From Escherichia phage PEC9: a DNA stretch of 44,379 nucleotides. Positions 40 to 44,338 of this stretch are shown here, in pieces. The notes below the pieces were generated by a model, which was not told where the DNA came from, ran no database searches, and was given only the letters and a program-made list of their open reading frames with translations. The first letter of the stretch is position 1. Each line of letters starts with the position of its first letter. The stretch lies in sequence record ON548431.1. One strand, 5' to 3'. The translations under genes were made by a program, and so were the position numbers.

Positions 40-49
40 ATTGGTTGCA
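40..49. promoter_or_regulatory. Recurrent intergenic motif ATTGGTTGCA (reverse complement TGCAACCAAT)
   Basis: Exact 10-mer at 40-49 upstream of the first plus-strand gene; degenerate copy ATTGGTCGCA at 71-80; same core recurs at many other intergenic sites. Confidence 0.45.
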
Positions 50-101
50 TCCATGCCAGCACCCTGCTAGATTGGTCGCACACCAACATGAGGACTGAAC
101 G

Positions 102-2904: not shown

Positions 2905-2967
2905 TTGCTTGACTCGCAACCAACATAGACGCCATACTGCGACCAATCAACGAGAGGAGTAATCAAG

Positions 2968-3048
2968 ATGGCACGTAAAGATATTTGGGTATTAGCGATC
3001 TGGACCACCGCGGCTTTTATCGGCATGGTTATTTGCGAATTGATATAG
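2968..3048 (+). CDS. Possible hydrophobic micro-peptide (26 aa)
   Basis: Strong RBS GAGGAG 7 nt before ATG 2968; translation MARKDIWVLAIWTTAAFIGMVICELI; stop TAG 3046-3048. Confidence 0.25.
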   Translation: MARKDIWVLAIWTTAAFIGMVICELI

Positions 3049-3109: not shown

Positions 3110-4252
3110 ATGCACCCGCAAACTAAAATTACCGATGAGCAATTGATCGCAGAAATTCAGGCAGGGACTACGGTTAAAGAGATTGCGAAGAAATACGGGA
3201 TTGCCCTGCGCAATGTCTATATGCGCAAAGCCCGCCTGTCGAAAAAGGGAATTGGTCACGGCAATGATGCCGTGATCCGTAAGCGCGTTGCCGATGGTTT
3301 TGGGGTTAAGCGCGTATCGGCCCTGGTGCGCGGAAATGGCGAAGAGGTCATGTCGTGGGTCATCACTGAGCAGGACAAGGAGCGCCAACTCGAAGCTATG
3401 CGCGCTGTTGTCGAGGGTATGAACAGCGAAATCACACCGGCAGCGCCTGTAAACGCCCCGCCAGTACCGATCCAGGCGCTCGACTTGCTCAACCTGTACA
3501 CCGTGTCAGACTTTCACCTGGGAATGCTGGCATGGGGTGAGGAGACTGGCGAAGACTGGGATATGGCGATCGCCGAAGACTTGTTCTACCGCTGGTTTGT
3601 CGAAGCCTTCGCCCGCGCACCGGACGCAGGCACTGCCGTTATCAATATCCTCGGGGATATGGCCCACTTTGATAGCCTGGATGCAGTCACCCCGGCAAGC
3701 GGTCACGTACTGGACGCCGACACCCGCTACCAGAAACTGGTCCGATACATGATTCGCATGGTGCGCAACGTCGTAGAACTTGCGCTGCAAAAACACCACA
3801 AAGTCAAACTGCTAATCGTCCAGGGTAATCATGACGAATCCGGTATGATTTGGCTTGCTGAGATGTTCAATACCTTGTATGAGAACGAGCCGCGCGTCGA
3901 TGTGGACACGTCCCCGGACGTCTACAAAATGGTGCAGCACGGTAAGACTACGCTATTTTTCCACCACGGGCACAAAGCGCGATTCGATGTTATCGAGCAG
4001 GTTATGATCGCTAAATTCAGACAGGCGTTCGGGTCGAGCGAATACAGCTACGCGCACGTAGGCCATTTGCACCACCAGAAGATTGTTGAATCCCGCAACA
4101 TGATTGTTGAACAGCACCGGACGCTCGCAGCGAAAGACGCCTACGCCAGTCGTGGCGGTTGGATGTCTGGTCGCAGCGCCAACGTCATTACCTACAGCGC
4201 CAACTACGGCGAAGTAGCGCGCTTAACCATTAGCCCAGAAATGTTGAAGTAA
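3110..4252 (+). CDS. HTH domain fused to calcineurin-like metallophosphoesterase
   Basis: 380 aa; N-terminal helix-turn-helix-like segment (TVKEIAKKYGIALRNVYMRKARL); phosphoesterase motifs SDFHLG, GDMAHFD, GNHDE, HHGH, GHLHH in canonical order. Confidence 0.6.
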   Translation: MHPQTKITDEQLIAEIQAGTTVKEIAKKYGIALRNVYMRKARLSKKGIGHGNDAVIRKRVADGFGVKRVSALVRGNGEEVMSWVITEQDKERQLEAMRAVVEGMNSEITPAAPVNAPPVPIQALDLLNLYTVSDFHLGMLAWGEETGEDWDMAIAEDLFYRWFVEAFARAPDAGTAVINILGDMAHFDSLDAVTPASGHVLDADTRYQKLVRYMIRMVRNVVELALQKHHKVKLLIVQGNHDESGMIWLAEMFNTLYENEPRVDVDTSPDVYKMVQHGKTTLFFHHGHKARFDVIEQVMIAKFRQAFGSSEYSYAHVGHLHHQKIVESRNMIVEQHRTLAAKDAYASRGGWMSGRSANVITYSANYGEVARLTISPEMLK

Positions 4253-4934: not shown

Positions 4935-6319
4935 TGCGTAACTATGCGGCAGAACACCGCGCCCTTGAACGAGCGATCGCAAAGCGAAACAGACCGCCGC
5001 GCCCGACACGCGTTGCGCAGGCCGTCCGCCTTTACCGGCCAGATTGCTTGCCGCACCAGGTTGAACTACTGCGCGACACGAAGACTAAAATCCTCGGCCT
5101 GTGTTCCGGCTTCGGCGGTGGAAAGTCGTGGGTCGCTGCGCGTAAGGTCATCCAGCTTTTAACCCTGAACCCCGGTCATGACGGCATCGTTACAGAACCG
5201 ACTATTCCCCTTCTGGTTAAAATCATGTACCCGGAATTGGAAAAGGCGTTTGATGAGGCTGGATTCCGGTGGAAGTTCAATAAGCAGGACAAGATCTATA
5301 ACGTGCTGGTGAAAGGGAAATGGACCCGCGTTATCTGTGAATCAATGGAAAACTATACCCGCCTGATCGGGGTCAACGCCGCGTGGATTGTTGCCGATGA
5401 ATTCGACACTACGAAGCAAGACGTCGCGCTGGCGGCATATCACAAACTGCTCGGTCGTCTGCGTGCGGGCTTCGTCCGCCAGTTCGTCATCGTGTCAACG
5501 CCTGAAGGCTACCGGGCGATGTACCAAATTTTCGAGGTGGAGAAAGACAACCAGAAACGCTTGATCCGGGCGAAGACCACGGACAACCACCATTTACCGG
5601 CAGACTTTATCGACACGCTGCGTAGTCAGTACCCAGCTAACCTGATCGACGCGTACTTGAACGGCCTGTTTGTTAACCTTACGTCGGGCGCGGTATACAA
5701 GATGTTTAACCGTGAGGAGAACGCAAGCACCGAAGAAGTGCAGCCGGAAGACACGCTGATTATCGGTATGGACTTTAACGTCACGAAGATGGCGGCGGTT
5801 GTGTACGTCAGACGGCAGCGAGTCACCGAGAACAAGGAGTTCCGCGACGAGATTCACGCGGTGGGCGAATTTGTGGACCTATTTGATACCCCGGCTATGA
5901 TTGAGGCGATCGAGGAGCGCTACCCCGATCATTGTGCTGCCGGTCGTGTTGTCGTTTACCCGGATAGCAGCGGCAAATCACGCAAGACGGTCAACGCGTC
6001 GTCGTCCGATATCGCGCAACTGGAAGACGCAGGCTTTGATGTGGAGTATGACAGCGTTAACCCGCCTGTTAAAGACCGATTGATCGCGATGAATACGATG
6101 ATGTGCAACTCGAAGGGCGTGCGCCAGTATTTTGTCAACCTGGATAAATGCCCTACACTAGCGAAATGTCTGGAACAGCAGGTGTACGACCTGAAGAAAG
6201 GCGAACCGGATAAAACTGCCGGTGTGGACCACATGAATGACGCGGCGGGCTACCCTATTGCGCACTTGTTCCCTGTGATTCGTCCGATCGCCGTTGTTCC
6301 AGCCGTAGACTTCTACTAA
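4934..6319 (+). CDS. Terminase large subunit
   Basis: 461 aa; Walker A-like GFGGGKS near N-terminus; position before portal. Confidence 0.8.
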   Translation: MRNYAAEHRALERAIAKRNRPPRPTRVAQAVRLYRPDCLPHQVELLRDTKTKILGLCSGFGGGKSWVAARKVIQLLTLNPGHDGIVTEPTIPLLVKIMYPELEKAFDEAGFRWKFNKQDKIYNVLVKGKWTRVICESMENYTRLIGVNAAWIVADEFDTTKQDVALAAYHKLLGRLRAGFVRQFVIVSTPEGYRAMYQIFEVEKDNQKRLIRAKTTDNHHLPADFIDTLRSQYPANLIDAYLNGLFVNLTSGAVYKMFNREENASTEEVQPEDTLIIGMDFNVTKMAAVVYVRRQRVTENKEFRDEIHAVGEFVDLFDTPAMIEAIEERYPDHCAAGRVVVYPDSSGKSRKTVNASSSDIAQLEDAGFDVEYDSVNPPVKDRLIAMNTMMCNSKGVRQYFVNLDKCPTLAKCLEQQVYDLKKGEPDKTAGVDHMNDAAGYPIAHLFPVIRPIAVVPAVDFY

Positions 6320-9386: not shown

Positions 9387-10151
9387 TTAGCGCGGAATGC
9401 CGCAAATCTCGTTGAGTGTTTTCACATCCAGCGCCACCGCCGTGGATTTTGGCTTGTCCGGGTATGGGATGAATTGCTCAACTTCAGGCCATGCCTTAAT
9501 CAGCTTCTTGTCAGTATTGTGCAGGTCCAGTACACCGGTAACGGTGAGTTTGAACGCATCATACTTCGCGCGCAACTCGCGACGGGCCTTGTCGTTGCGG
9601 TCCAGGCGCTTACAGAAATCATGATCCGCCGGGAAATCTGCACGGCAGCGTGGCTTATAGATCGGCAGCGCTTTCCCGTCCTCGTCCACTTCACACACTG
9701 AAGCCAGCATAACTTCTTCAAACCCCGGTACGATATCGCCGAGATCGGGAGATAGCTTATTCATGTATTTATATTCCCAGTATCCGCGATGTACGCGGTA
9801 TTGGTGGCCGTCACCGCTCAAGGATAAGGTGCGAACATTTCCGCCTGCGTTGATTTCGAAAGTGGCGTCGTAAACGCTGCCGATACCTTTCGGGCGGTCG
9901 GTGTTATAACTATATGTCGCCTTGTTGGTGTAGACGCAGACGCCGTACATCTGCGACGGGTCATCGCTGATTGCCTCGATACGCTCGCGTAGCGCGGAGA
10001 ATGTGCGAATGCCGTCCGGCATACAGTCCAGCGTGATTGCGTACGCCAGATCGCGTGAGTCCATCATGATTGTTTTGGCTTCGGTAGCGATTTCGTGGTC
10101 GCGCAGGATGTTAGCCAGGATCTGATTTTTAATATCTTTCGTCAGTCTCAT
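9387..10151 (-). CDS. Hypothetical protein (254 aa), accessory gene inside virion module
   Basis: Minus-strand ORF with GAGGA RBS; C-terminal Cys-x16-Cys-x7-His-x2-Cys cluster suggests a zinc-binding domain; no family recognised. Confidence 0.55.
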   Translation of the reverse strand: MRLTKDIKNQILANILRDHEIATEAKTIMMDSRDLAYAITLDCMPDGIRTFSALRERIEAISDDPSQMYGVCVYTNKATYSYNTDRPKGIGSVYDATFEINAGGNVRTLSLSGDGHQYRVHRGYWEYKYMNKLSPDLGDIVPGFEEVMLASVCEVDEDGKALPIYKPRCRADFPADHDFCKRLDRNDKARRELRAKYDAFKLTVTGVLDLHNTDKKLIKAWPEVEQFIPYPDKPKSTAVALDVKTLNEICGIPR

Positions 10152-10189: not shown

Positions 10190-10504
10190 TTAGTTAAATT
10201 TGATGTTGCCACCGGTGGAAGTTAAGCGGGCACATACAGCTTCAACGGCATCAACGCACATGAAATCGTTAAAGGCTTCGACCAGGGCGTTTATGAAAGA
10301 TGCCGGAACCAGGCCGCAAGCCGGATTATCGAATGCCGCGGAGTTGATCGCCGCTTTTGCCGCTTCAGAAGCATTCATGCTCTGGCACAGATTCAGCGCT
10401 TCCGCGTTACGCATTGCGTGAAAGGTAAAGGTATTCGCTACGGTAGCTTTATTGAAACGGGCCATTGCGGCGTCTACTGGAGTTGCTACGGTCATGTTAG
10501 TCAT
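10190..10504 (-). CDS. Hypothetical protein (104 aa), accessory gene inside virion module
   Basis: Internal ATG at 10504 with AAGGAAG RBS chosen within ORF 10190-10558; Ala-rich, no motif recognised. Confidence 0.45.
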   Translation of the reverse strand: MTNMTVATPVDAAMARFNKATVANTFTFHAMRNAEALNLCQSMNASEAAKAAINSAAFDNPACGLVPASFINALVEAFNDFMCVDAVEAVCARLTSTGGNIKFN

Positions 10505-10532
10505 TTTGTCTTCCTTCATATCTCTGTTGGTG

Positions 10533-10556
10533 TGCAACCAATATACTGCAACCAAC
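10533..10556. promoter_or_regulatory. Two direct copies of TGCAACCAAT / TGCAACCAAC in a divergent intergenic region
   Basis: Read at 10533-10542 and 10547-10556, between minus-strand start 10504 and plus-strand start 10659. Confidence 0.45.
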
Positions 10557-10576
10557 ATTCACAATGCAAGCGAATT

Positions 10577-10604
10577 TTGCGATTATTTTTATCGCTGATA
10601 ATAT
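10577..10604 (+). promoter_or_regulatory. Candidate sigma70-like promoter for scaffold/capsid genes
   Basis: TTGCGA, 16-bp spacer, TAATAT; about 55 bp upstream of ATG 10659; weak match. Confidence 0.25.
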
Positions 10605-14595: not shown

Positions 14596-14656
14596 TTTGG
14601 CACTATTCTGCGCGTGCTGTATCATTGAACCGTATATCTAAACAGGAGCGTTCATT

Positions 14657-16129: not shown

Positions 16130-16133
16130 CGAA

Positions 16134-16450
16134 GCGGGACAGGCGGGACGTCCCGTTTTGTCCCGCCACCATTAAACTGCATATATACTCACTACCAGTG
16201 CATAAACTAAAAGCGGGACAGGGGTGCTGTCCCGATCTGTCCCGCCCCTTAAAAGTGAATAGCTAAGCGGTTTTTCTGCATAAAACAAACGGGACAAAAA
16301 ACGGGACAGACCAGGGGCGGGACAAAGCGGGACAGCACCCTGTCCCTGCCAGTGCTGCCGCGGGTTTTAGCCGATCGGGACAGGCGGGACAAAGCCCAGT
16401 CTTTCAGACTAGACGGGGGTCATTGGCCCCCCTCGTCTGAGACTGAATAA
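16134..16450. repeat. GGGACA-rich iteron-like repeat region with palindromes, ending in a 75-bp structured element
   Basis: About 14 copies of GGGACA(G/A) in both orientations; palindrome GGGACGTCCC; GGGACAG-N5-CTGTCCC units; 16290-16450 is a near-copy of 44109-44269. Confidence 0.7.
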
Positions 16451-26644: not shown

Positions 26645-26654
26645 TGCAACCAAT
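26645..26654. promoter_or_regulatory. Recurrent motif TGCAACCAAT upstream of tail fibre gene
   Basis: Exact 10-mer 17 bp upstream of ATG 26671, in a divergent intergenic region. Confidence 0.45.
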
Positions 26655-29724: not shown

Positions 29725-29747
29725 TGCAACCAATCTATTGGTTGCAA
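29725..29747. promoter_or_regulatory. Perfect palindrome TGCAACCAAT-cta-ATTGGTTGCA
   Basis: Read directly; overlaps the stop codon of the minus-strand HAD gene and lies about 55 bp upstream of the next minus-strand start; adjacent GGGGGC-N6-GCCCCC hairpin at 29691-29708. Confidence 0.55.
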
Positions 29748-30205
29748 GTGAATTTTGCAACGTTTATCGCGTAAATTTTCGGGACCAAATCACCACACGC
29801 CCGACGAATTGCTGCGATGTTCTTCGGGCAGTCTTCAATGATGACCAGTTCCGACACGTCCGCATAACAGACCATTTTGAACACGGCGCACGCCTTAAAC
29901 TCTGGCGGCGGGGTGTCGTCCAGCATGTGGCGCATAAACAACCTGCCTACCGGGAAGACCTCCAATTGCTCGGCGGTGGTTTCCCAGCATTCTCGCTGCC
30001 GGTTGGTCAGATACGCGATCTCGAAGCCTTGCTCTTTATACATGCGCAGTAGCGGCAGCATATCCATGTTCAGGTCTTCGCGGACGTGCGCCTTGTGCCA
30101 CTTCGCCCAAAAGGTGGATTTAGTTTTTACACCCGGCACCAGGTCGGCACGCGCATCGCTTGAACCGTTAATAACGCCATCCAAATCGCAAATCAGTAAT
30201 TTCAT
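29735..30205 (-). CDS. HAD-superfamily hydrolase (nucleotidase/phosphatase-like)
   Basis: 156 aa; N-terminal DxDGV motif (LICDLDGV) typical of HAD phosphatases. Confidence 0.5.
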   Translation of the reverse strand: MKLLICDLDGVINGSSDARADLVPGVKTKSTFWAKWHKAHVREDLNMDMLPLLRMYKEQGFEIAYLTNRQRECWETTAEQLEVFPVGRLFMRHMLDDTPPPEFKACAVFKMVCYADVSELVIIEDCPKNIAAIRRACGDLVPKIYAINVAKFTCNQ

Positions 30206-30426
30206 TTTAAGCTCTCAATAAGGGTGTATCGGGCGCTGCGCGCGGTGAAGGAGTTACACACGAAATGGCAACGCGTGGTTATGACAAGCCAGCCGGTAAG
30301 ATCTAGGCCCAGAATATATTCAGGCCGCGACACGCGACGCACACGATCGCGGCGGGGGTCGATGCAGAAGTCTTTTTGCATTTGGTCTACTACCGCAGGG
30401 TCGCGGTCAACGATTAAGATATTCAA
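30202..30426 (-). CDS. Hypothetical protein (74 aa)
   Basis: TTG start with strong AAGGAG RBS 6 nt upstream; overlaps 3' end of upstream methyltransferase gene in another frame. Confidence 0.35.
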   Translation of the reverse strand: MNILIVDRDPAVVDQMQKDFCIDPRRDRVRRVSRPEYILGLDLTGWLVITTRCHFVCNSFTARSARYTLIESLK

Positions 30427-30892
30427 GGAGTTCTCCTTCGCTCATTATTTCAATTTGTGCGCTGCCGGTGGGCGGCGCTTCGTCAAAGATTATCAATTGC
30501 TGGCACTTGTTATTGCTCGGACCGACTTCACCGGTTACAGCATGTATGAATCGGATCCGCCAGTCCAGAAGAATTATCAGGTTTGCAGTCTTCCGGGCCA
30601 GCTTTGCCCACTTCGTCGACGTGTCCTGATTCAGCAGCATGACGGTCCGGCGTCCGTGCGCTGCACACTCGACCCACGGCAGCGGATCGGAATACGGCGG
30701 GTTGCACCACTTCCACCCTTTCAACTCTGACCAGTCCGCCTCAAGCGCGCTGTGCTCTGCCGTGAAGTAACGCGGTAGCAGGTGGTTGGCATCGCTCGCC
30801 GCCATGTCATAACGGAATCGGTACTTCCGGCGCAGCGGTTTAAATAAAGCTGGCGGCGTGCGCCAGCTATCTTTTTGCTCACTCTTCTGCAT
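30407..30892 (-). CDS. DNA N6-adenine methyltransferase (phage Dam-like)
   Basis: 161 aa; NPPY catalytic motif (WCNPPYSD); compact size typical of phage amino-methyltransferases. Confidence 0.65.
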   Translation of the reverse strand: MQKSEQKDSWRTPPALFKPLRRKYRFRYDMAASDANHLLPRYFTAEHSALEADWSELKGWKWCNPPYSDPLPWVECAAHGRRTVMLLNQDTSTKWAKLARKTANLIILLDWRIRFIHAVTGEVGPSNNKCQQLIIFDEAPPTGSAQIEIMSEGELLEYLNR

Positions 30893-31638: not shown

Positions 31639-31665
31639 TGCAACCAATATGATTATGCAACCAAT
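31639..31665. promoter_or_regulatory. Two direct copies of TGCAACCAAT, 17 bp apart
   Basis: Read at 31639-31648 and 31656-31665, about 55 bp upstream of minus-strand start 31586. Confidence 0.5.
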
Positions 31666-34383: not shown

Positions 34384-34557
34384 TTATTCTTGTTCTGCAC
34401 GATAGCGGCGCTGCCGTTCGCGCTCTTTCTTATTGCGGCAAGACTTGCACTCGGCCCGATGACCGTCTGGACTTCGCGCAGTCTTGCCGGTGTACTTGTG
34501 GAACTGGGATAGCGGCTTGATGCATCCGCAATTACTACAACGTTTTTCTTCAATCAT
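34384..34557 (-). CDS. Small zinc-ribbon-like protein (57 aa)
   Basis: ATG 34557 with GAGGA RBS; CSNCGC ... ECKSC cysteine pairs; basic C-terminus. Confidence 0.35.
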   Translation of the reverse strand: MIEEKRCSNCGCIKPLSQFHKYTGKTARSPDGHRAECKSCRNKKERERQRRYRAEQE

Positions 34558-34597: not shown

Positions 34598-34876
34598 CTA
34601 CGCGACCAATTCAGCAACCAATAAATCGCAGTCGGATATGTTGTCGATAACGCGAACGTCAGCACCGCGGCGGGCCATTCGCTCATGTTCACGTACCTGG
34701 TGCGGCTTCGGTTTTCCTCCGGGGCGCTTCACTTCGACGAACACTATTTTGCCGTTGATGATAATAATCAGGTCGGGCGCACCTGCGCGCCCCTCCCATG
34801 CCAGTTTTCGGCAGAATCCGCCAACATCTTTCACCCGTCTCATCAGGTGACTTTGTATCTTGCCCTCTGGTGTCAT
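34598..34876 (-). CDS. VRR-NUC-type nuclease
   Basis: 92 aa from ATG 34876; segment GAPDLIIIINGKIVFVEVKRPGGKP matches the PD...E-x-K core of VRR-NUC domains; directly downstream of polymerase. Confidence 0.55.
   Translation of the reverse strand: MTPEGKIQSHLMRRVKDVGGFCRKLAWEGRAGAPDLIIIINGKIVFVEVKRPGGKPKPHQVREHERMARRGADVRVIDNISDCDLLVAELVA
34614..34622. promoter_or_regulatory. Motif core GCAACCAAT
   Basis: 9-mer at 34614-34622, about 60 bp upstream of minus-strand start 34557. Confidence 0.35.
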
Positions 34877-37391: not shown

Positions 37392-38177
37392 TTAACGGCG
37401 GCGACGTTTACGTGGTGCTTCGTCTTCGTCGTCTTCGTCCTCATCTTCATCGTCGCGCGGCTTACGACGTTTACGAGGTTTCTCATCTTCGTCGTCTTCG
37501 TCGTCATCGCGGCGCTTGGACTTTTTGGACTTGCGCGGCTTGTCGTCTTCGTCATCGTCATCACGACGTTTTGACTTTTTGGCCTTGCGCGGGCTTTCAT
37601 CTTCGTCATCGTTGTCCAGGTCTTCGTCGGAGCAAGAAGACCCGCCACCGCCGAAGGCTTCACCGTCATCACGGAAGCGTAAACCCAGCAAGCCAGCACC
37701 GAGTCCCTTGCCGTTGGTGTTGTTCCACGCCCAAATATCCAAGGACACGTTGCAATAACATCCGGAGTAGATCTCCTGGCCTTCGATCTCGTCGCCTTCT
37801 ACGGTCAGACCTTGTTCAGTCTGCTTCTCGCCGAGTGACGTTTGAATGTTTGGCTGTTTGAACGATTTGGCGTTGATGTACAACATGCCTTCGAATTCTT
37901 CGGTCACTTCATCGCGCTCGTCACCGTCGCGAACTGCGCATTCCTTAGAATCCTGTGCGTAGTGGCGGTCCATCCACTTATCGGCGTTCTTCTCGGATTT
38001 CAGCTTGTCGGTGAGCACTGCGCGCGCTGCCGCTTCCACTTTGTCCACCTGCGGATCTTCTTTATCAAGAAGAATCACTGCACGGTATGCCGGTTTTTGA
38101 CCATCCTGTTTAGGGGTATCGCGTTCCCAAATTTTAAGGAAACATACGCGCACATTTTTCAGGTTGACTTTAGCCAT
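37392..38177 (-). CDS. SSB-like protein with alternating acidic/basic repetitive C-terminal tail
   Basis: 261 aa from ATG 38177 (GAGGA RBS); C-terminal about 80 aa made of repeats such as DEDE-KPRKSKKSKRR-DDDEDDEDE; co-located with Cas4-like nuclease; SSB role inferred. Confidence 0.5.
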   Translation of the reverse strand: MAKVNLKNVRVCFLKIWERDTPKQDGQKPAYRAVILLDKEDPQVDKVEAAARAVLTDKLKSEKNADKWMDRHYAQDSKECAVRDGDERDEVTEEFEGMLYINAKSFKQPNIQTSLGEKQTEQGLTVEGDEIEGQEIYSGCYCNVSLDIWAWNNTNGKGLGAGLLGLRFRDDGEAFGGGGSSCSDEDLDNDDEDESPRKAKKSKRRDDDDEDDKPRKSKKSKRRDDDEDDEDEKPRKRRKPRDDEDEDEDDEDEAPRKRRRR

Positions 38178-38232
38178 TTTCCAATTCCTCATTTTAACAT
38201 GTATCGGGGCTATTGTGAGCCACCCCGTTCGG

Positions 38233-38257
38233 CTTGGTTGCTAATCTACTTGGTTGC
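38233..38257. promoter_or_regulatory. Two direct copies of CTTGGTTGC (reverse complement GCAACCAAG)
   Basis: Read at 38233-38241 and 38249-38257 between two minus-strand genes. Confidence 0.4.
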
Positions 38258-41198: not shown

Positions 41199-41208
41199 AT
41201 TGGTTGCA
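41199..41208. promoter_or_regulatory. Recurrent motif ATTGGTTGCA in divergent early control region
   Basis: Exact 10-mer between minus early gene (40995) and plus gene (41397). Confidence 0.45.
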
Positions 41209-41230
41209 GAAGGGAGTCAACAACTAATTT

Positions 41231-41265
41231 AAAAAAAAAAGCGCCGAAGCAAAATGCGACGGCGC
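41231..41265 (-). terminator. Hairpin with A10/T10 tract, terminator-like on minus strand
   Basis: Plus strand: ten A then GCGCCG-N13-CGGCGC; on minus strand hairpin is followed by ten T. Confidence 0.4.
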
Positions 41266-41336
41266 TAACCAATAAGAGACAATGAGACGGGAATTATTAT
41301 TACACGCGTGCGCGCCCGTTTCAATATCCAAAGGAT

Positions 41337-41365
41337 TTGACACCGTGCAGTTTTGGGTGTAGTTT
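41337..41365 (+). promoter_or_regulatory. Candidate sigma70 promoter for the plus-strand HTH/primase operon
   Basis: TTGACA at 41337-41342, 17-bp spacer, TAGTTT at 41360-41365; about 30 bp upstream of RBS AGGAG and ATG 41397. Confidence 0.4.
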
Positions 41366-41396
41366 CGTTGGTCATTAGCCAACAGGAGACTGAATT

Positions 41397-41726
41397 ATGA
41401 ATATCAAAGAAGCAATTGAAGTGTTATCTAATGCAATCCGCGGCGAAGCGGGTAAATCCTGGTATTACACAAATGCGGTGGATACTCTGTTATTTGAAGT
41501 GTCCAGATTATCGCGTGCTGAGAAGGAGCTTACCGCGAAGCTGGAATTACTCAACGGCACGGCAGCAAGCAAGCTGCAAAAGCACAATGAAGAAATGGAA
41601 GAATACAAAAAACAGGTTATCCGTTTGCGCGCCGAGGGCAAATCCTGGGCAATGATCGCTGAGTTGACAGGAATTAATCAGAGCACCGTGCGCTCCTGGG
41701 TACGCAATAATAAAACTTCGAAGTAA
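41397..41726 (+). CDS. Small HTH DNA-binding protein (putative transcription regulator)
   Basis: 109 aa; C-terminal helix-turn-helix-like segment (SWAMIAELTGINQSTVRSWV); AGGAG RBS. Confidence 0.5.
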   Translation: MNIKEAIEVLSNAIRGEAGKSWYYTNAVDTLLFEVSRLSRAEKELTAKLELLNGTAASKLQKHNEEMEEYKKQVIRLRAEGKSWAMIAELTGINQSTVRSWVRNNKTSK

Positions 41727-41736
41727 GGCAACGGCA

Positions 41737-44001
41737 ATGAGCTTAATTAAATTCGCGGTAACACGACCCGCTAAAAAAGGCGAAAAAGCCAGGGCGGAAA
41801 ACTTCCAGATGACCACCGATGAATTTTTCGAATTTATCAATGACGCGAAAGAAATCTCCTCGGTGCATATCAACAAGACGGAAGATAAAGCCGAGTATGC
41901 GCGCCGCAAGCGTAAGGCCGATGGCATCGTAGCTTATACCAGTGACGGCCTGCGCCGCAAGACCAGTGCGGTGGACCGCTCGATCCTGTTCTTCGATATT
42001 GACCGCACCGACACTCGCACCCTACGCCGCTGCCGTAAGGCTTTCATCGACGCGGGGCTGGAGCACGTATTCCACACAACCACCGGCGACCGCCACCCGC
42101 TGAAAGGCGGCACGCGTTGCGCCCGTTTCCTGGTACTCACTGACAAGCCTGTACCGGCGGAAGACCTGGGCCGTGTCCAGTATGCGCTATTACACCAACT
42201 TGGCCTGTCAGATGTGGACTTCGACGATTGCACGAAAGACACAAACCGCCTGATGTACCTGCCGCACCAGCAGTCTGTCATTAAGTGTCACTACGGCAAA
42301 CGTGCCCGCGTCCGTCGTCTGCTCCGCCTGGCGGATACGCTTGGCGTGGAGAAGGAAGAAGTACGCCGCGAGCTTACCCAGGGCGACGACGCAGTGGCAG
42401 ACGGCATTCTGGACTGGTGCTTCCAGGCAGGATTCGAGGAGTTATCTTCCGGTCGCGGTTATGAAGTGCCGTGCCCGAACGAACATCTGCACAGCGGCGA
42501 AGGGTCGACGGCTATCATGGTCAAGGATGGCGAGATCCGTTTCAAGTGTATGCACACCGGCAACGAGTGTTGCTCGGAGCTAAATAGACACCAGCACCTG
42601 GCGCTACGTCTTATCGGGATACCGGACCACCTGAACGTCGAGCCGCACAACATGTCACGTAAGCAAATTGCCGCCATCCTCCCAGGGCTGGACGACGAGG
42701 AAGTCGAATCCTTATATGAACATATTGTTGATGCGGTTGGCGACGGCGAAGAATACGGCGTGTGCACCGATGCGGATCTGGATAACGAGCCGGTCGCACT
42801 ATTCAGTAAGCACGACCCGATCATCGAAGGTCTGATTAACTTCAAATCGACCTGGTATATGGCTGGCGAGTCGAACATCGGCAAGTCCTTCTATGTGCTG
42901 GGGCAGATGGGCGCGGTTGCCGCGGGTATCCCGTTTGGCGGTGCGAAGGTCGTCCAGTCTCATTGCTTCTATTTCGATGCGGAAGGTGGTGAAGCCTCTA
43001 ACCAGCGCAAAGAAGCATTGCAGATTAAATACGAGCACGACCTGGACAAGCTGCACATTATCGACCTGCAGTCTCGCGGCTGGGATATCACCAGCAAGTC
43101 CGGTTTGCGCGAAGTTATCAGCTTTATCAACCGCACCGCTAACGGCGAACCTGTTGGCCTGGTGGCGTTCGACTCACTCAACCAGACTGTTGCGCTGCGG
43201 TCCGCCGATGCTAAACCGTTTGACGAGAACAACGCCAGCGATATGGGTGAAGTAGTCAAAGCGCTGAAAGCCATTGCGGAAAACACGGGGGGCAGTGCGG
43301 GCGTCATCCACCACCCGGCGAAGGGTGCAAACGGCAGCAGAACCCCACGCGGATCCGGCGCACTGCATGGCGCTGTCGATTCCGCTTTCTTCCTGGAACA
43401 GCCGGACGACAACCAACCAGGCCAATTGAACCTGTATCACGAAAAATCACGTAACGGTATCAAGCAAGCGCCGCGTGGCTTCGTCCTGCTCAAGTGCAAG
43501 GTGAAGGTGGATCTCCGCAAGTCAGAAGCGTTCGAGGCGCACCAGTCCACCAGCACCGGTCCGGACTTCGGAGACGTAGTTGCCGGTTGGGACGTCAAAC
43601 CAATTGCGTCCACCCCGCGCGACGAGACTTTATACCTCGTACCGGTCGCCCTGGCACCGTTCGCTATAGAACAGGCGAAGGCCGCAGGAAAAGCCGCAGT
43701 TAAGGAAGAGAACACCGCCGGACCGCGCACCGAAAAAGAAAAGGTACTTTACGCGGCCCTGGAAAAACTGATGGAAGATAACCCGGACCATACTGGTTTC
43801 AGTAAATCGGCAATTGTCCGCCAGGCTGGACTCGCGAAGGGTGGCACTTCGACGAAGGCAATAGACGATATGGTCGAGCGCGGCGTGATTGGTTTCTATA
43901 CAGACCCGCACACCGGGGCCATATATGGGTCATCGAATTTAGTCATTAAATCGGATATCCCCATTACACTTTCTGCGACCGATGACGACCTGAAAGATTA
44001 A
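41737..44001 (+). CDS. Primase-helicase (N-terminal primase-like domain, central P-loop ATPase, C-terminal putative DNA-binding domain)
   Basis: 754 aa; acidic motif FFDIDRTD, Cys/His cluster (CPNEHLHSGEG ... FKCMHTGNEC), Walker A GESNIGKS, Walker B-like LVAFDSL; C-terminal domain assignment is a guess. Confidence 0.7.
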   Translation: MSLIKFAVTRPAKKGEKARAENFQMTTDEFFEFINDAKEISSVHINKTEDKAEYARRKRKADGIVAYTSDGLRRKTSAVDRSILFFDIDRTDTRTLRRCRKAFIDAGLEHVFHTTTGDRHPLKGGTRCARFLVLTDKPVPAEDLGRVQYALLHQLGLSDVDFDDCTKDTNRLMYLPHQQSVIKCHYGKRARVRRLLRLADTLGVEKEEVRRELTQGDDAVADGILDWCFQAGFEELSSGRGYEVPCPNEHLHSGEGSTAIMVKDGEIRFKCMHTGNECCSELNRHQHLALRLIGIPDHLNVEPHNMSRKQIAAILPGLDDEEVESLYEHIVDAVGDGEEYGVCTDADLDNEPVALFSKHDPIIEGLINFKSTWYMAGESNIGKSFYVLGQMGAVAAGIPFGGAKVVQSHCFYFDAEGGEASNQRKEALQIKYEHDLDKLHIIDLQSRGWDITSKSGLREVISFINRTANGEPVGLVAFDSLNQTVALRSADAKPFDENNASDMGEVVKALKAIAENTGGSAGVIHHPAKGANGSRTPRGSGALHGAVDSAFFLEQPDDNQPGQLNLYHEKSRNGIKQAPRGFVLLKCKVKVDLRKSEAFEAHQSTSTGPDFGDVVAGWDVKPIASTPRDETLYLVPVALAPFAIEQAKAAGKAAVKEENTAGPRTEKEKVLYAALEKLMEDNPDHTGFSKSAIVRQAGLAKGGTSTKAIDDMVERGVIGFYTDPHTGAIYGSSNLVIKSDIPITLSATDDDLKD

Positions 44002-44011
44002 ATTTTGCGCG

Positions 44012-44056
44012 CATTGGTTGCCATTTTGAGTGTTTTTAGCCGGTCGCATTGGTTGC
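44012..44056. promoter_or_regulatory. Two direct copies of CATTGGTTGC just downstream of primase stop
   Basis: Read at 44012-44021 and 44047-44056; reverse-complement copy GCAACCAATG at 44329-44338 on the far side of the repeat. Confidence 0.45.
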
Positions 44057-44108
44057 CGTGTAGTGTGAATATAATGCATAGTTATGCAATAAAACTGCAT
44101 AAAGTAAG

Positions 44109-44269
44109 CGGGACAAAAAGCGGGACAGACCAGGGGCGGGACAAAGCGGGACAGCACCCCTGTCCCGCCCCGGATGACGCGGCCTGGCGGGGAGCGGGAC
44201 AGGCGGGACAAAGCCCAGTCTTTCAGACTAGACGGGGGTCATTGGCCCCCCTCGTCTGAGACTGAATAA
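44109..44269. repeat. Second copy of the ~160-bp GGGACA-rich structured repeat (last 75 bp identical to 16376-16450)
   Basis: Left part 44109-44165 about 90 percent identical to 16290-16346; 29-bp divergent middle; right part 44195-44269 identical to 16376-16450. Confidence 0.75.
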
Positions 44270-44328
44270 AATCCGGGATTGCATAATACACGGCAGCACA
44301 TTGGAAATCGCGGTCGTCGCTGAACTAG

Positions 44329-44338
44329 GCAACCAATG
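44329..44338. promoter_or_regulatory. Recurrent motif GCAACCAATG, inverted relative to 44012-44056
   Basis: Read directly in the terminal non-coding region. Confidence 0.4.

Follow-up and report, generated by a model that had tools for sequence, protein, structure and literature searches.

The genome of Escherichia phage PEC9 (44,379 bp; this whole stretch is referred to as the window) contains many copies of a nine-base word, GCAACCAAT, and this box is probably an operator-like site through which a conserved protein of the phage coordinates its promoters other than the early ones. The box, which can be written as GCAACCAA[T/C] with G also occurring at position 3, would be embedded in the core of ordinary sigma-70-type promoters, and its reader would be a sequence-specific phage protein, shared by Dhillonvirus, Eiauvirus and two or more Guernseyvirinae-like lineages, that takes a single asymmetric 9-bp unit in either orientation. 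The window represents the whole genome, in circularly permuted form, of a Dhillonvirus from the HK578 / SSL-2009a / EK99P-1 group of virulent E. coli siphophages. Its two ends adjoin each other in phage Oekolampad, so the sites at 44013-44337 and 40-79 lie in one intergenic region. The gene map used here is the Oekolampad annotation transferred to the window: the plus strand carries gp50, the helicase-primase gp51, the small early-right genes, the lysis genes, gp65, the terminase and the structural genes, and the genes for replication and nucleotide metabolism lie on the minus strand from 28.5 to 41.3 kb. The phage is virulent, and neither an integrase nor a repressor was found; a phage-encoded sigma factor or RNA polymerase is not detectable by Pfam.

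The exact word is present in 13 copies on the two strands against 0.60 expected, and no more than 2 copies were obtained in any of 100 dinucleotide-preserving shuffles, which bears out the original prediction that a motif recurs here far above chance; the coordinates listed there were right within 1 nt. The exact copies of GCAACCAAT start at the following positions:

Plus strand: 605, 10534, 26646, 29726, 31640, 31657, 34614 and 44329.
Minus strand: 40, 29737, 41199, 44013 and 44048.

The degenerate form GC[AG]ACCAA[TCG] matches 22 sites, 16 of which are wholly noncoding, 3 reach into the final codons of gp30 or gp40 and 3 are intragenic. With 5.8% of the window noncoding, the binomial P of this bias is 9e-16 when the 16 sites are counted and 4e-21 when all 19 are. 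The description of the copies as all intergenic or at gene ends therefore holds for 19 of the 22 degenerate sites and fails for the remaining three; the exact copy at 605-613 sits within gene gp54. A scan of coding against intergenic sequence and a comparison with related phages had been set beforehand as refutation tests: the great majority of copies lie between genes, related genomes have the motif as well, and it survives both. The copies at 38233 and 38249 read GCAACCAAG and the one at 10548 reads GCAACCAAC, and the degenerate form adds variants that were absent from the earlier list, GCGACCAAT at 71 (minus), 2939 (plus) and 34602 (plus) and GCAACCAAC at 2916 (plus).

In an alignment of the 19 sites, the information content is limited to the nine core positions. 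Among approximately 12 loci, one is an inverted pair, and the remainder consist of lone boxes or of direct repeats at spacings of 12, 14, 16, 17, 23, 31 or 35 bp. Because only one locus is inverted and nothing is conserved beyond the 9-mer, the recognised unit is, judging from the alignment, a single asymmetric 9-mer. The box occurs on either strand, and the same and the opposite orientation relative to transcription are both common. The dyad symmetry with fixed half-site spacing that defines a palindromic operator is lacking at most sites; what is found is an asymmetric site scattered through short intergenic regions, as for stoperators, and a phage-specific, strongly over-represented and intergenic word that is conserved in relatives, as for PHIRE-type elements. 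A specific, conserved and noncoding signal of this kind is best explained by a sequence-specific DNA-binding protein, as had been proposed, although the part of that proposal that made the protein dimeric finds no support in the single and directly repeated copies at all loci but one.

Conservation within the genus was compared in five Dhillonviruses (the window, Oekolampad, EK99P-1, CHD5UKE2 and SO-1). The four relatives carry 14-15 exact copies each in orthologous places, and over ten box-bearing intergenic regions in the five genomes the box positions are 97.8% identical (n=171) against 86.5% for other intergenic positions (n=1013; one-sided Mann-Whitney P 1.5e-10, with alignment columns that are not independent). 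Upstream of the open reading frame (ORF) at 2968 and gp65, the terminator, TTGACT, GCAACCAAC, CATACT and GCRACCAAT are conserved, whereas the 8-nt stretch that separates the -10 from the first box is wholly different between genomes. The spacers between boxes vary freely, and A and G swap at box position 3 between genomes, also at the 2939 site. At 10534, conservation across genomes starts exactly at the element despite differing upstream gene content. Many other Dhillonviruses are approximately 90% identical to the window, and phage PEC14 is 100% identical to it across the portion that its 37-kb record covers. The public PEC14 record (OP046317 / NC_073051) has 37,268 bp, compared with a 44,379-bp window that is collinear with complete Dhillonviruses, and the deposited record appears to be incomplete.

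The positions of the boxes relative to predicted promoters were determined by taking, for each region, the best sigma-70-like promoter toward the adjacent gene, with the -10 hexamer set as -12..-7. The promoter regions are as follows:

40..48, minus strand: box GCAACCAAT; the plus-strand TTGC is the -35 (TTGCAT) of the rightward gp53 promoter, at -40..-32.
71..79, minus strand: variant box GCGACCAAT over the -10 (TAGATT) and discriminator of the gp53 promoter, at -9..-1.
2916..2924, plus strand: box GCAACCAAC in the spacer (-29..-21) of TTGACT-18-CATACT (2909-2938), just past the terminator at 2879-2900.
2939..2947, plus strand: box GCGACCAAT abutting the -10 CATACT (-6..+3).
10534..10556, plus strand: boxes GCAACCAAT and GCAACCAAC flanking TATACT; on the minus strand they lie at -9..-1 and -23..-15 of TTGCAT-18-TATATT for ORF 10190-10558.
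26646..26654, plus strand: box in the divergent gp26/lateral-tail-fibre region, at -40..-32 of the leftward TTGCAT-17-AATACT and abutting AAGAAT on the plus strand.
29725..29746, both strands: inverted pair TGCAACCAAT-ct-ATTGGTTGCA, with arms at 29725-29734 and 29737-29746 (10+2+10 = 22 bp).
31640..31665, plus strand: two boxes at -23..-15 and -40..-32 of the leftward TTGCAT-17-TATATT for gp34.
34602..34622, plus strand: boxes GCGACCAAT and GCAACCAAT over the 3' end of the VRR-NUC gene gp40, at -28..-20 and -40..-32 of the leftward TTGCTG-17-TATAGT for gp39.
38233..38257, minus strand: two GCAACCAAG boxes in the SSB promoter TTGACC-17-TAGATT, at -21..-13 and -5..+3.
41199..41207, minus strand: box in the spacer (-22..-14) of TTGACT-17-TAATAT, which would drive gp48 and the replication operon.
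41296..41365, both strands: box-free divergent early promoters, rightward TTGACA-17-TAGTTT (41337-41365) for gp50 and gp51 and leftward TTGAAA-17-AATAAT (41324-41296).

One or two boxes thus lie over the -35, spacer, -10 or start of approximately 11 predicted promoters, which belong to replication, lysis/early-right, head, tail-fibre and accessory operons, and the box-free pair at 41296-41365 comprises the two best-scoring of the intergenic promoter candidates examined. Read along transcription as ATTGGTTGC, the box occupies -40..-32 in four promoters (gp53, gp26, gp34 and gp39), where its TTGC is the -35; it occupies -23..-15 upstream of ORF 10190-10558, gp34 and gp29, and -9..-1 upstream of gp53, ORF 10190-10558 and gp29, where its ATT ends the -10. 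Read as GCAACCAAT, it lies within -29..-12 in the spacers at 2916, 41199, 38249 and 29737, or at -6..+3, directly after the -10, at 2939, 38233 and 26646. When 58 boxes that are not interior to genes were pooled from four independent lineages (the window, eiAU-183, 37P2 and Otaku), a -10-like hexamer abuts the box in 15 (P 4e-13), and three further exact offsets recur in 10, 9 and 6 of the 58 (P 2e-7, 2e-6 and 1e-3), against a background of 2% per position; one of these offset classes is partly intrinsic, as the box itself gives ATT to the hexamer.

Because the boxes fall within the -40 to +3 footprint at varied positions and in both orientations, steric control is the simplest mechanism: occupancy of the RNA-polymerase footprint would give coordinated control of the delayed promoters by steric repression or timing, and the recurrent -40..-32 position makes activation possible at some of them. 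The enrichment, the location, the conservation, the fixed geometry, the spread over genera and the variant box of sister lineages are observed; that a protein binds the boxes, which way it regulates and which protein it is are inferred.

Several side observations concern these promoter regions. The strongest promoter-like site, at 41228-41324 (minus), is TTGAAA-17-AATAAT with an upstream TG, and a hairpin with a T10 tract (41262-41228) follows approximately 60 nt on, an arrangement that suggests a short early transcript. The annotated 36-aa gp49 ORF (41265-41375) begins upstream of the 41324-41296 promoter and may not be a real gene. Directly downstream of the promoter at 2909-2938 is an unannotated ORF for 26 hydrophobic residues (2968-3048, plus; MARKDIWVLAIWTTAAFIGMVICELI), which is kept in all five Dhillonviruses. 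The 122-aa ORF 10190-10558 (minus) has no Pfam match and is present in the window and CHD5UKE2, absent from Oekolampad and SO-1, and replaced by a different sequence in EK99P-1; this slot, beside the Nmad5-domain gene gp07, is a variable 'moron'-like one. A second conserved word, TGCAAG[CT]GAATTTTGC[GA]A, occurs at 10567-10584 and 29744-29761, just downstream of box pairs, and is kept in all five Dhillonviruses.

The box extends well beyond the genus. A profile of ten lineages, five with dispersed boxes and five without, was made, with approximately 1.3 copies of GCAACCAA expected per genome from composition. The window has 18 copies, SO-1 21, eiAU-183 23, 37P2 13, Otaku 12 and the intermediate metagenomic lineage L135 14 in 22 kb, compared with 3 in phiEap-2, 0 in VSiA, 1 in Jersey, 4 in Bas75 and 1 in XY1. 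In the Edwardsiella phage eiAU-183, GCAACCAA is the top intergenic 8-mer, with 17 of 23 copies intergenic; in the Klebsiella phage 37P2, the box has the extended consensus tATT-GCAACCAAC-ATT; Otaku is a Serratia phage. The box-poor phages infect Salmonella (VSiA, Jersey), Enterobacter (phiEap-2) and E. coli (Bas75, XY1). Box positions are orthologous across genera upstream of SSB, before the gp48 homologue, and after the VRR-NUC gene ahead of the gp39 homologue, the last in 37P2, Otaku, eiAU and L135. In VSiA and phiEap-2, a variant with one substitution, CAGCCAAC(AT), is found at the homologous locus beside the helicase-primase gene and hardly elsewhere. Two approaches were abandoned: a frequent word of VSiA, GGCAACA, proved mostly coding and is no analogue of the box, and tandem GCAACCAA pairs in viral contigs were swamped by collagen-like Gly-Asn-Gln coding repeats (GGC-AAC-CAA) and chance matches. 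As side observations, 37P2 (lineage L005) carries five copies of GTCGATAAATTT genome-wide, which contains TCGATAAATT, presumably a high-affinity H-NS motif, and L135 has a full box at 9678-9686, between a -10-like TATATT and the start codon of its gp50 variant; the equivalent position in the window, 41367-41375, has the degenerate GTTGGTCAT, which may be a weak autoregulatory site on the early operon.

The fixed offsets raise the question of whether the box is an intrinsic promoter element, such as an extended -35 or a discriminator/start-site consensus, that is read by the RNA polymerase holoenzyme, possibly in a phage-modified form. The exact offsets to -10-like hexamers recur in four lineages, the reverse complement gives TTGC as the -35 and ATT completes the -10, and the commonest arrangement, at 15 of 58 sites, is a -10 hexamer followed immediately by GCAACCAA. 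However, a sigma-70 core element has one fixed position and orientation, whereas the 9-mer is found at five or more positions on either strand; copies also lie outside promoters (44013, 44329 and the 3' ends of helicase-primase genes), and Pfam detects no sigma factor or RNA polymerase of the phage. The orthologous SSB promoter is recognisable in four lineages by the same -35, 17-nt spacer, -10, conserved hairpin in the 5' untranslated region and ribosome-binding site. In the window it reads TTGACC-gcttaggcGCAACCAAG-TAGATT-a-GCAACCAAG, and in 37P2 it reads TTGACA-tctGCAACCAACtaaat-TAACGT with the box in the spacer, whereas VSiA and Jersey have a plain TTGACA-17-TATTAT and no box. Given these box-free orthologous promoters, the comparison indicates that the box is an add-on inserted into an ordinary promoter, as expected for an operator, and not a core element; with the multiple positions taken together with it, direct recognition by RNA polymerase is quite unlikely. 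The original prediction had set a protein-binding site against a sigma70 promoter element, and this opposition survives only in part: the box is no core element, but it is built into sigma-70-type promoters at fixed offsets. The hairpin in the SSB leader is GC-rich and conserved in position in the four lineages (window 38160-38230, minus; L005 16780-16822; L008 31050-31100; L009 32870-32920).

The inverted pair at 29725-29746 had been described as a perfect 23-bp palindrome; the inverted repeat is indeed perfect in this isolate, but it spans 22 bp, and its left arm is GCAACCAAC in the four other Dhillonviruses, so that the pair is conserved and perfect only here. It covers the last codons, as had been noted, and the stop codon of a gene for a HAD-like phosphatase, although the HAD-superfamily match of this gene is weak (PF03767, E 4e-5, under the Pfam cutoff), and it lies within the core of the leftward gp29 promoter or promoters, TTGCAA-17-TAGATT and/or TTGCAA-18-TATAGT. 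That the box is an RNA-level or hairpin element, such as a terminator or processing site, or else the target of a Dam-like methyltransferase, is very improbable. The inverted pair is flagged as terminator-like, and the following gene matches the distribution of the box:

30407..30892, minus strand: Dam-like N6-adenine methyltransferase (PF05869), whose presence or absence matches that of dispersed boxes in 10 of 10 lineages (5/5 box-rich, 0/5 box-poor).

Against an RNA element, most copies are single and unable to form hairpins, both orientations occur, mostly upstream of predicted start sites, and the inverted pair has no U-tract on the gene strand; a hairpin or terminator role for the family as a whole was rejected on the grounds of orientation and position upstream of predicted starts. 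GATC is absent from the box, methylation targets would not be expected at promoters only, and the correlation with the methyltransferase may reflect shared ancestry.

The boxes next to the helicase-primase gene and the candidate readers are as follows:

44013..44056, minus strand: two boxes that follow directly on the stop codon of the helicase-primase gene and flank the iteron array on its left.
44090..44215, no strand assigned: GCGGGACA iteron array ('region B'), a putative origin, lineage-specific and unlike the box.
44329..44337, plus strand: box on the right flank of the iteron array, outside predicted core promoters.
41737..44001, plus strand: gp51 helicase-primase, a candidate reader with an N-terminal domain, a Cys/His cluster, a RepA-like core and a C-terminal unit.
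34384..34557, minus strand: gp39, a 57-aa CxxC...CxxC zinc ribbon with a basic tail, a candidate reader.
41397..41726, plus strand: gp50, a long helix followed by a C-terminal helix-turn-helix (HTH; HTH_23 / Sigma70_r4_2).

Arrays of GCGGGACA(R), including inverted copies, form region B and a second, mutually similar region A (~16130-16240), both of which correspond to annotated repeat regions in SO-1; the repeat arrays are a likely origin of replication. The small ORFs called in these regions, gp52 (44074-44259) and gp18 (16276-16440), may be spurious. In each box-bearing lineage, boxes cluster next to an iteron array, either at the 3' end of the helicase-primase gene or beyond it. The iteron sequence differs by lineage (Dhillonvirus, GCGGGACA; 37P2, TTGCGAGT; Otaku, TTCCGCACA; VSiA, GGGGGAGA; phiEap-2, CGGACAA), unlike the box, which remains the same throughout the box-rich lineages. 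In eiAU the box itself is the main repeat by the helicase-primase gene, with 11 copies in 900 bp.

This arrangement lends some appeal to the idea that the box is primarily a replication signal for the initiator/primase gp51, with the promoter copies coupling replication to transcription or serving loading or priming by a DnaA-box logic; we regard this as possible but doubtful. A 9-bp asymmetric unit in both orientations would fit, clusters flank the iteron array by the gp51 gene in all box-bearing lineages, and VSiA and phiEap-2 retain their variant boxes only at the gp51-side locus. Furthermore, the -9..-1 and -6..+3 boxes would lie in the region that is melted in open complexes. The protein itself is the only conserved one behind the box-free early promoter. 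Its N-terminal alpha/beta domain has an invariant D87-x-D89, H120 and D163, which we take to be a primase-like pattern, and is followed by an invariant Cys/His cluster at residues 246-287, a RepA/DnaB-like core and, after a disordered linker, a separate, variable helix-helix-helix-beta-beta unit (666-737) that is winged-helix-like by alignment and model. Against gp51, no DNA-binding domain was identified in it by sequence; a Foldseek search with the full model returned only RecA-fold matches and nothing on the terminal modules, and a sequence search against the PDB gave no match. Its identity to the window protein differs little between lineages with GCAACCAA (46-48%) and lineages with the variant (43-44%), and the 21 residues that are invariant in the former and different in the latter are scattered, mostly in the helicase core, rather than clustered in one module, so this search for specificity-determining positions was not diagnostic. 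The lineage-specific iterons would be more conventional initiator targets, and the origin is itself deduced rather than mapped. By analogy, the DnaA-box-like version, in which the initiator also regulates promoters, is attractive but unproven. In the most specific form of this idea, the box would be read by the conserved zinc-finger/primase module of gp51, and this one early protein would both label the origin and control nearly all delayed promoters, which is again a tentative proposal.

The gp39 protein is an equally tentative candidate, and it and gp51 (46-48% against 44% or less) are the two conserved proteins that rank with the box by identity. The gp39 gene lies behind a box-bearing promoter in every lineage examined; the protein is at least 56% identical in box-rich lineages outside Dhillonvirus and 46% identical in VSiA and phiEap-2, and it is absent elsewhere. 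The zinc-ribbon module of gp39 is also found in fusions with HNH and endonuclease VII proteins. If one reader has to be named, gp51 and gp39 stand level in front, a host factor comes somewhat behind them, and gp50 is the least probable of the four.

The HTH protein at 41397-41726 had been put forward as the binder, and gp50 is indeed a genuine HTH protein, the only one in the window that is significant by Pfam (HTH_23, 30.5 bits, cutoff 24.6, E 3e-7; Sigma70_r4_2, 29.2 bits, cutoff 25.7, E 7e-7). As the operator of a dimeric, Cro-like gp50, the box would find support in the invariant C-terminal 60 residues of this protein, beside an N-terminus that is variable and swapped between strains, in its expression from the strong box-free promoter, as predicted, and in the one inverted pair. 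In the model (predicted local distance difference test score, pLDDT, 88.7), a 59-residue helix that could dimerise runs into a three-helix HTH, whose structural neighbours are the HTHs of LuxR/GerE/NarL, IstA and resolvases (root-mean-square deviation ~1 A, E>0.7), with the finer family not assignable. The phyletic distribution speaks against this role, and gp50 was rejected as reader on that account: its homologues are confined to Dhillonvirus-type phages (154 phage records, 24 protein clusters), whereas eiAU-183, 37P2 and Otaku have 12-23 boxes and no gp50 by tblastn or profile search. The co-occurrence across genomes that is expected of an operator and its regulator is therefore absent, and most loci are single boxes or variably spaced direct repeats, which suit a dimer poorly. 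Instead, gp50 co-occurs with the lineage-specific GCGGGACA iterons, which suggests, on distribution, that it has a different job; that it reads the box is unlikely. Relatives without gp50 have an unrelated XRE-type (Cro/CI-type) HTH in the syntenic place, with no homologue found in the window; it was rejected as well, being present in box-rich and box-free lineages alike, with recognition helices that do not sort by motif. The second HTH protein that had been proposed, at 3110-4252, does not stand: gp65 is a metallophosphoesterase that is missing from eiAU, 37P2 and Otaku and present in motif-poor lineages, and is thus anti-correlated with the box. The N-terminus of gp65 (3110-3250, plus; …TDEQLIAEIQAGTTVKEIAKKYGIALRNVYMRKARL…) is HTH-like by eye with no Pfam call, and some records annotate a transcriptional regulator.

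A reader supplied by the host, such as a conserved Enterobacterales transcription factor, a nucleoid protein or RNA polymerase recruited by the phages, would explain why no phage regulator tracks the box, and the hosts of the box-bearing phages are all Enterobacterales (E. coli, Sodalis, Edwardsiella, Klebsiella and Serratia). The right half of the box, ACCAAT, presumably resembles GntR/FadR-type half-sites, such as those of PdhR. However, relatives that infect Salmonella and Enterobacter have CAGCCAAC in place of the box at the homologous locus, and Bas75 and XY1, which infect E. coli, are essentially box-free. Those hosts share essentially the global regulators of E. coli. Single 9-mers with variable spacing also misfit dimeric host factors, and the searched literature holds no published site that matches the string. 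The host motifs compared (PdhR/UxuR half-sites, CytR, NtrC, IHF, DnaA and BirA) are not known to share more with the box than an ACCAAT or TGCAA fragment and were set aside. A host factor is made less likely as reader by sister lineages whose hosts are close relatives but whose box differs or is missing, and the variant box argues for a phage reader that co-evolves with its site; we put the host explanation as rather improbable.

Several points weigh against an operator read by one conserved phage protein, which nevertheless remains our preferred explanation. No phage DNA-binding protein tracks the box cleanly across the ten lineages: lineages that have no more than a few variant boxes also encode gp39 and gp51, at 43-46% identity, and the only perfect correlate in presence and absence is the Dam-like methyltransferase. 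A repressor on nearly all promoters of a virulent phage needs an extra timing or relief mechanism. Exact offsets are unusual for a purely steric repressor, and they are partly intrinsic, the box adding TTGC and ATT to the hexamers. A good promoter-like site at 14597-14625, before the major tail gene, has no box; the boxes at 44013, 44048 and 44329 lie outside any convincing promoter; generic consensus promoter scans are overall not above shuffles; and no mapped transcription start sites for any Dhillonvirus were found in the searched literature.

A second enriched word family was also noted in the window. The word ACGGCAGCG has 14 copies window-wide against 0.8 expected (for example at 5812, 6635, 8141, 9642, 20866, 29558, 30676, 38365, 40089 and 40907), and its CGGCAGC core has 53 copies against 8.2 expected, all except 2 intragenic, on both strands and in every reading frame. 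GCTGCCG-type words rank among the top words of 37P2, VSiA and Otaku too.

Dhillonviruses (HK578, SSL-2009a, SECphi18 and Oekolampad, a BASEL phage) are common subjects of work on phage defence and host range, and no description of their transcriptional programme, as promoters, transcriptomes or PHIRE analysis, was found in the searched literature. The box offers a ready map of approximately 11 putatively regulated promoters, set apart from the box-free early pair, and its reach into Eiauvirus and Guernseyvirinae-like phages makes this a cross-genus regulon, with natural controls in orthologous promoters that carry the box, a variant box or none. The obvious guess from annotation is also corrected, as the one protein with a recognisable HTH probably does not read the box. 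Knowing the protein that does would reveal how gene expression is timed in small virulent siphophages that lack an RNA polymerase or sigma factor of their own, and it would yield a compact, portable operator/regulator pair. If gp51 were the reader, replication and global transcription would be coupled in a DnaA-like manner in a virulent phage, and this coupling would be conserved across several genera.

As judged by its conservation and placement, the element is a real, well-conserved regulatory box that resembles known kinds of dispersed phage sites, and its own sequence is not in the searched literature, where the string, its reverse complement and its 8-mer core returned only primers and unrelated papers. 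DnaA boxes are 9-bp asymmetric sites that are clustered at oriC and scattered in DnaA-regulated promoters, and the alpha protein of phage P4 similarly has octamers at ori and crr. The present box is likewise a 9-bp asymmetric unit in both orientations, with clusters by the iterons and putative origin next to a putative initiator gene and dispersed copies in promoters; it differs in being unrelated to TTATCCACA, in having separate lineage-specific iterons in the same region, and in that the origin here is a deduced one. The operators of P1 C1 and the stoperators of mycobacteriophage L5 gp71 are asymmetric single-unit sites scattered through the genome in short intergenic regions, many of them over promoters, with occasional inverted pairs in P1. 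The box shares the asymmetry, the scatter in short intergenic regions, the location over promoters and one inverted pair, whereas these sites measure 13-17 bp and belong to temperate phages, in contrast to 9 bp in a virulent phage, and L5 stoperators keep one orientation relative to transcription, in contrast to the mixed orientation found here. The T4 MotA box is a 9-bp element that replaces the -35 at middle promoters. Both are phage-specific 9-bp boxes in host-polymerase promoters that mark, or here would mark, a temporal class, and in four promoters here the -35 is where the box lies. The MotA box keeps to one position and one orientation, whereas five positions and either orientation are found here, and homologues of MotA or AsiA were not detected. 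In the T1-like phage TLS, a 21-nt repeat, aaATAGCACnnnTTGnTAAAA, occurs at 21 sites as a PHIRE-type intergenic element, for which stoperators, enhancers and UP elements were also weighed (PMC11447400). It resembles the box as a short phage-specific word of approximately 20 copies that lies almost only between genes, by terminators and promoters ('transcriptons'). The two sequences are unrelated, and the box, at 9 bp, occurs in both orientations in the core promoter at exact offsets, recurs across several genera and flanks a putative origin.

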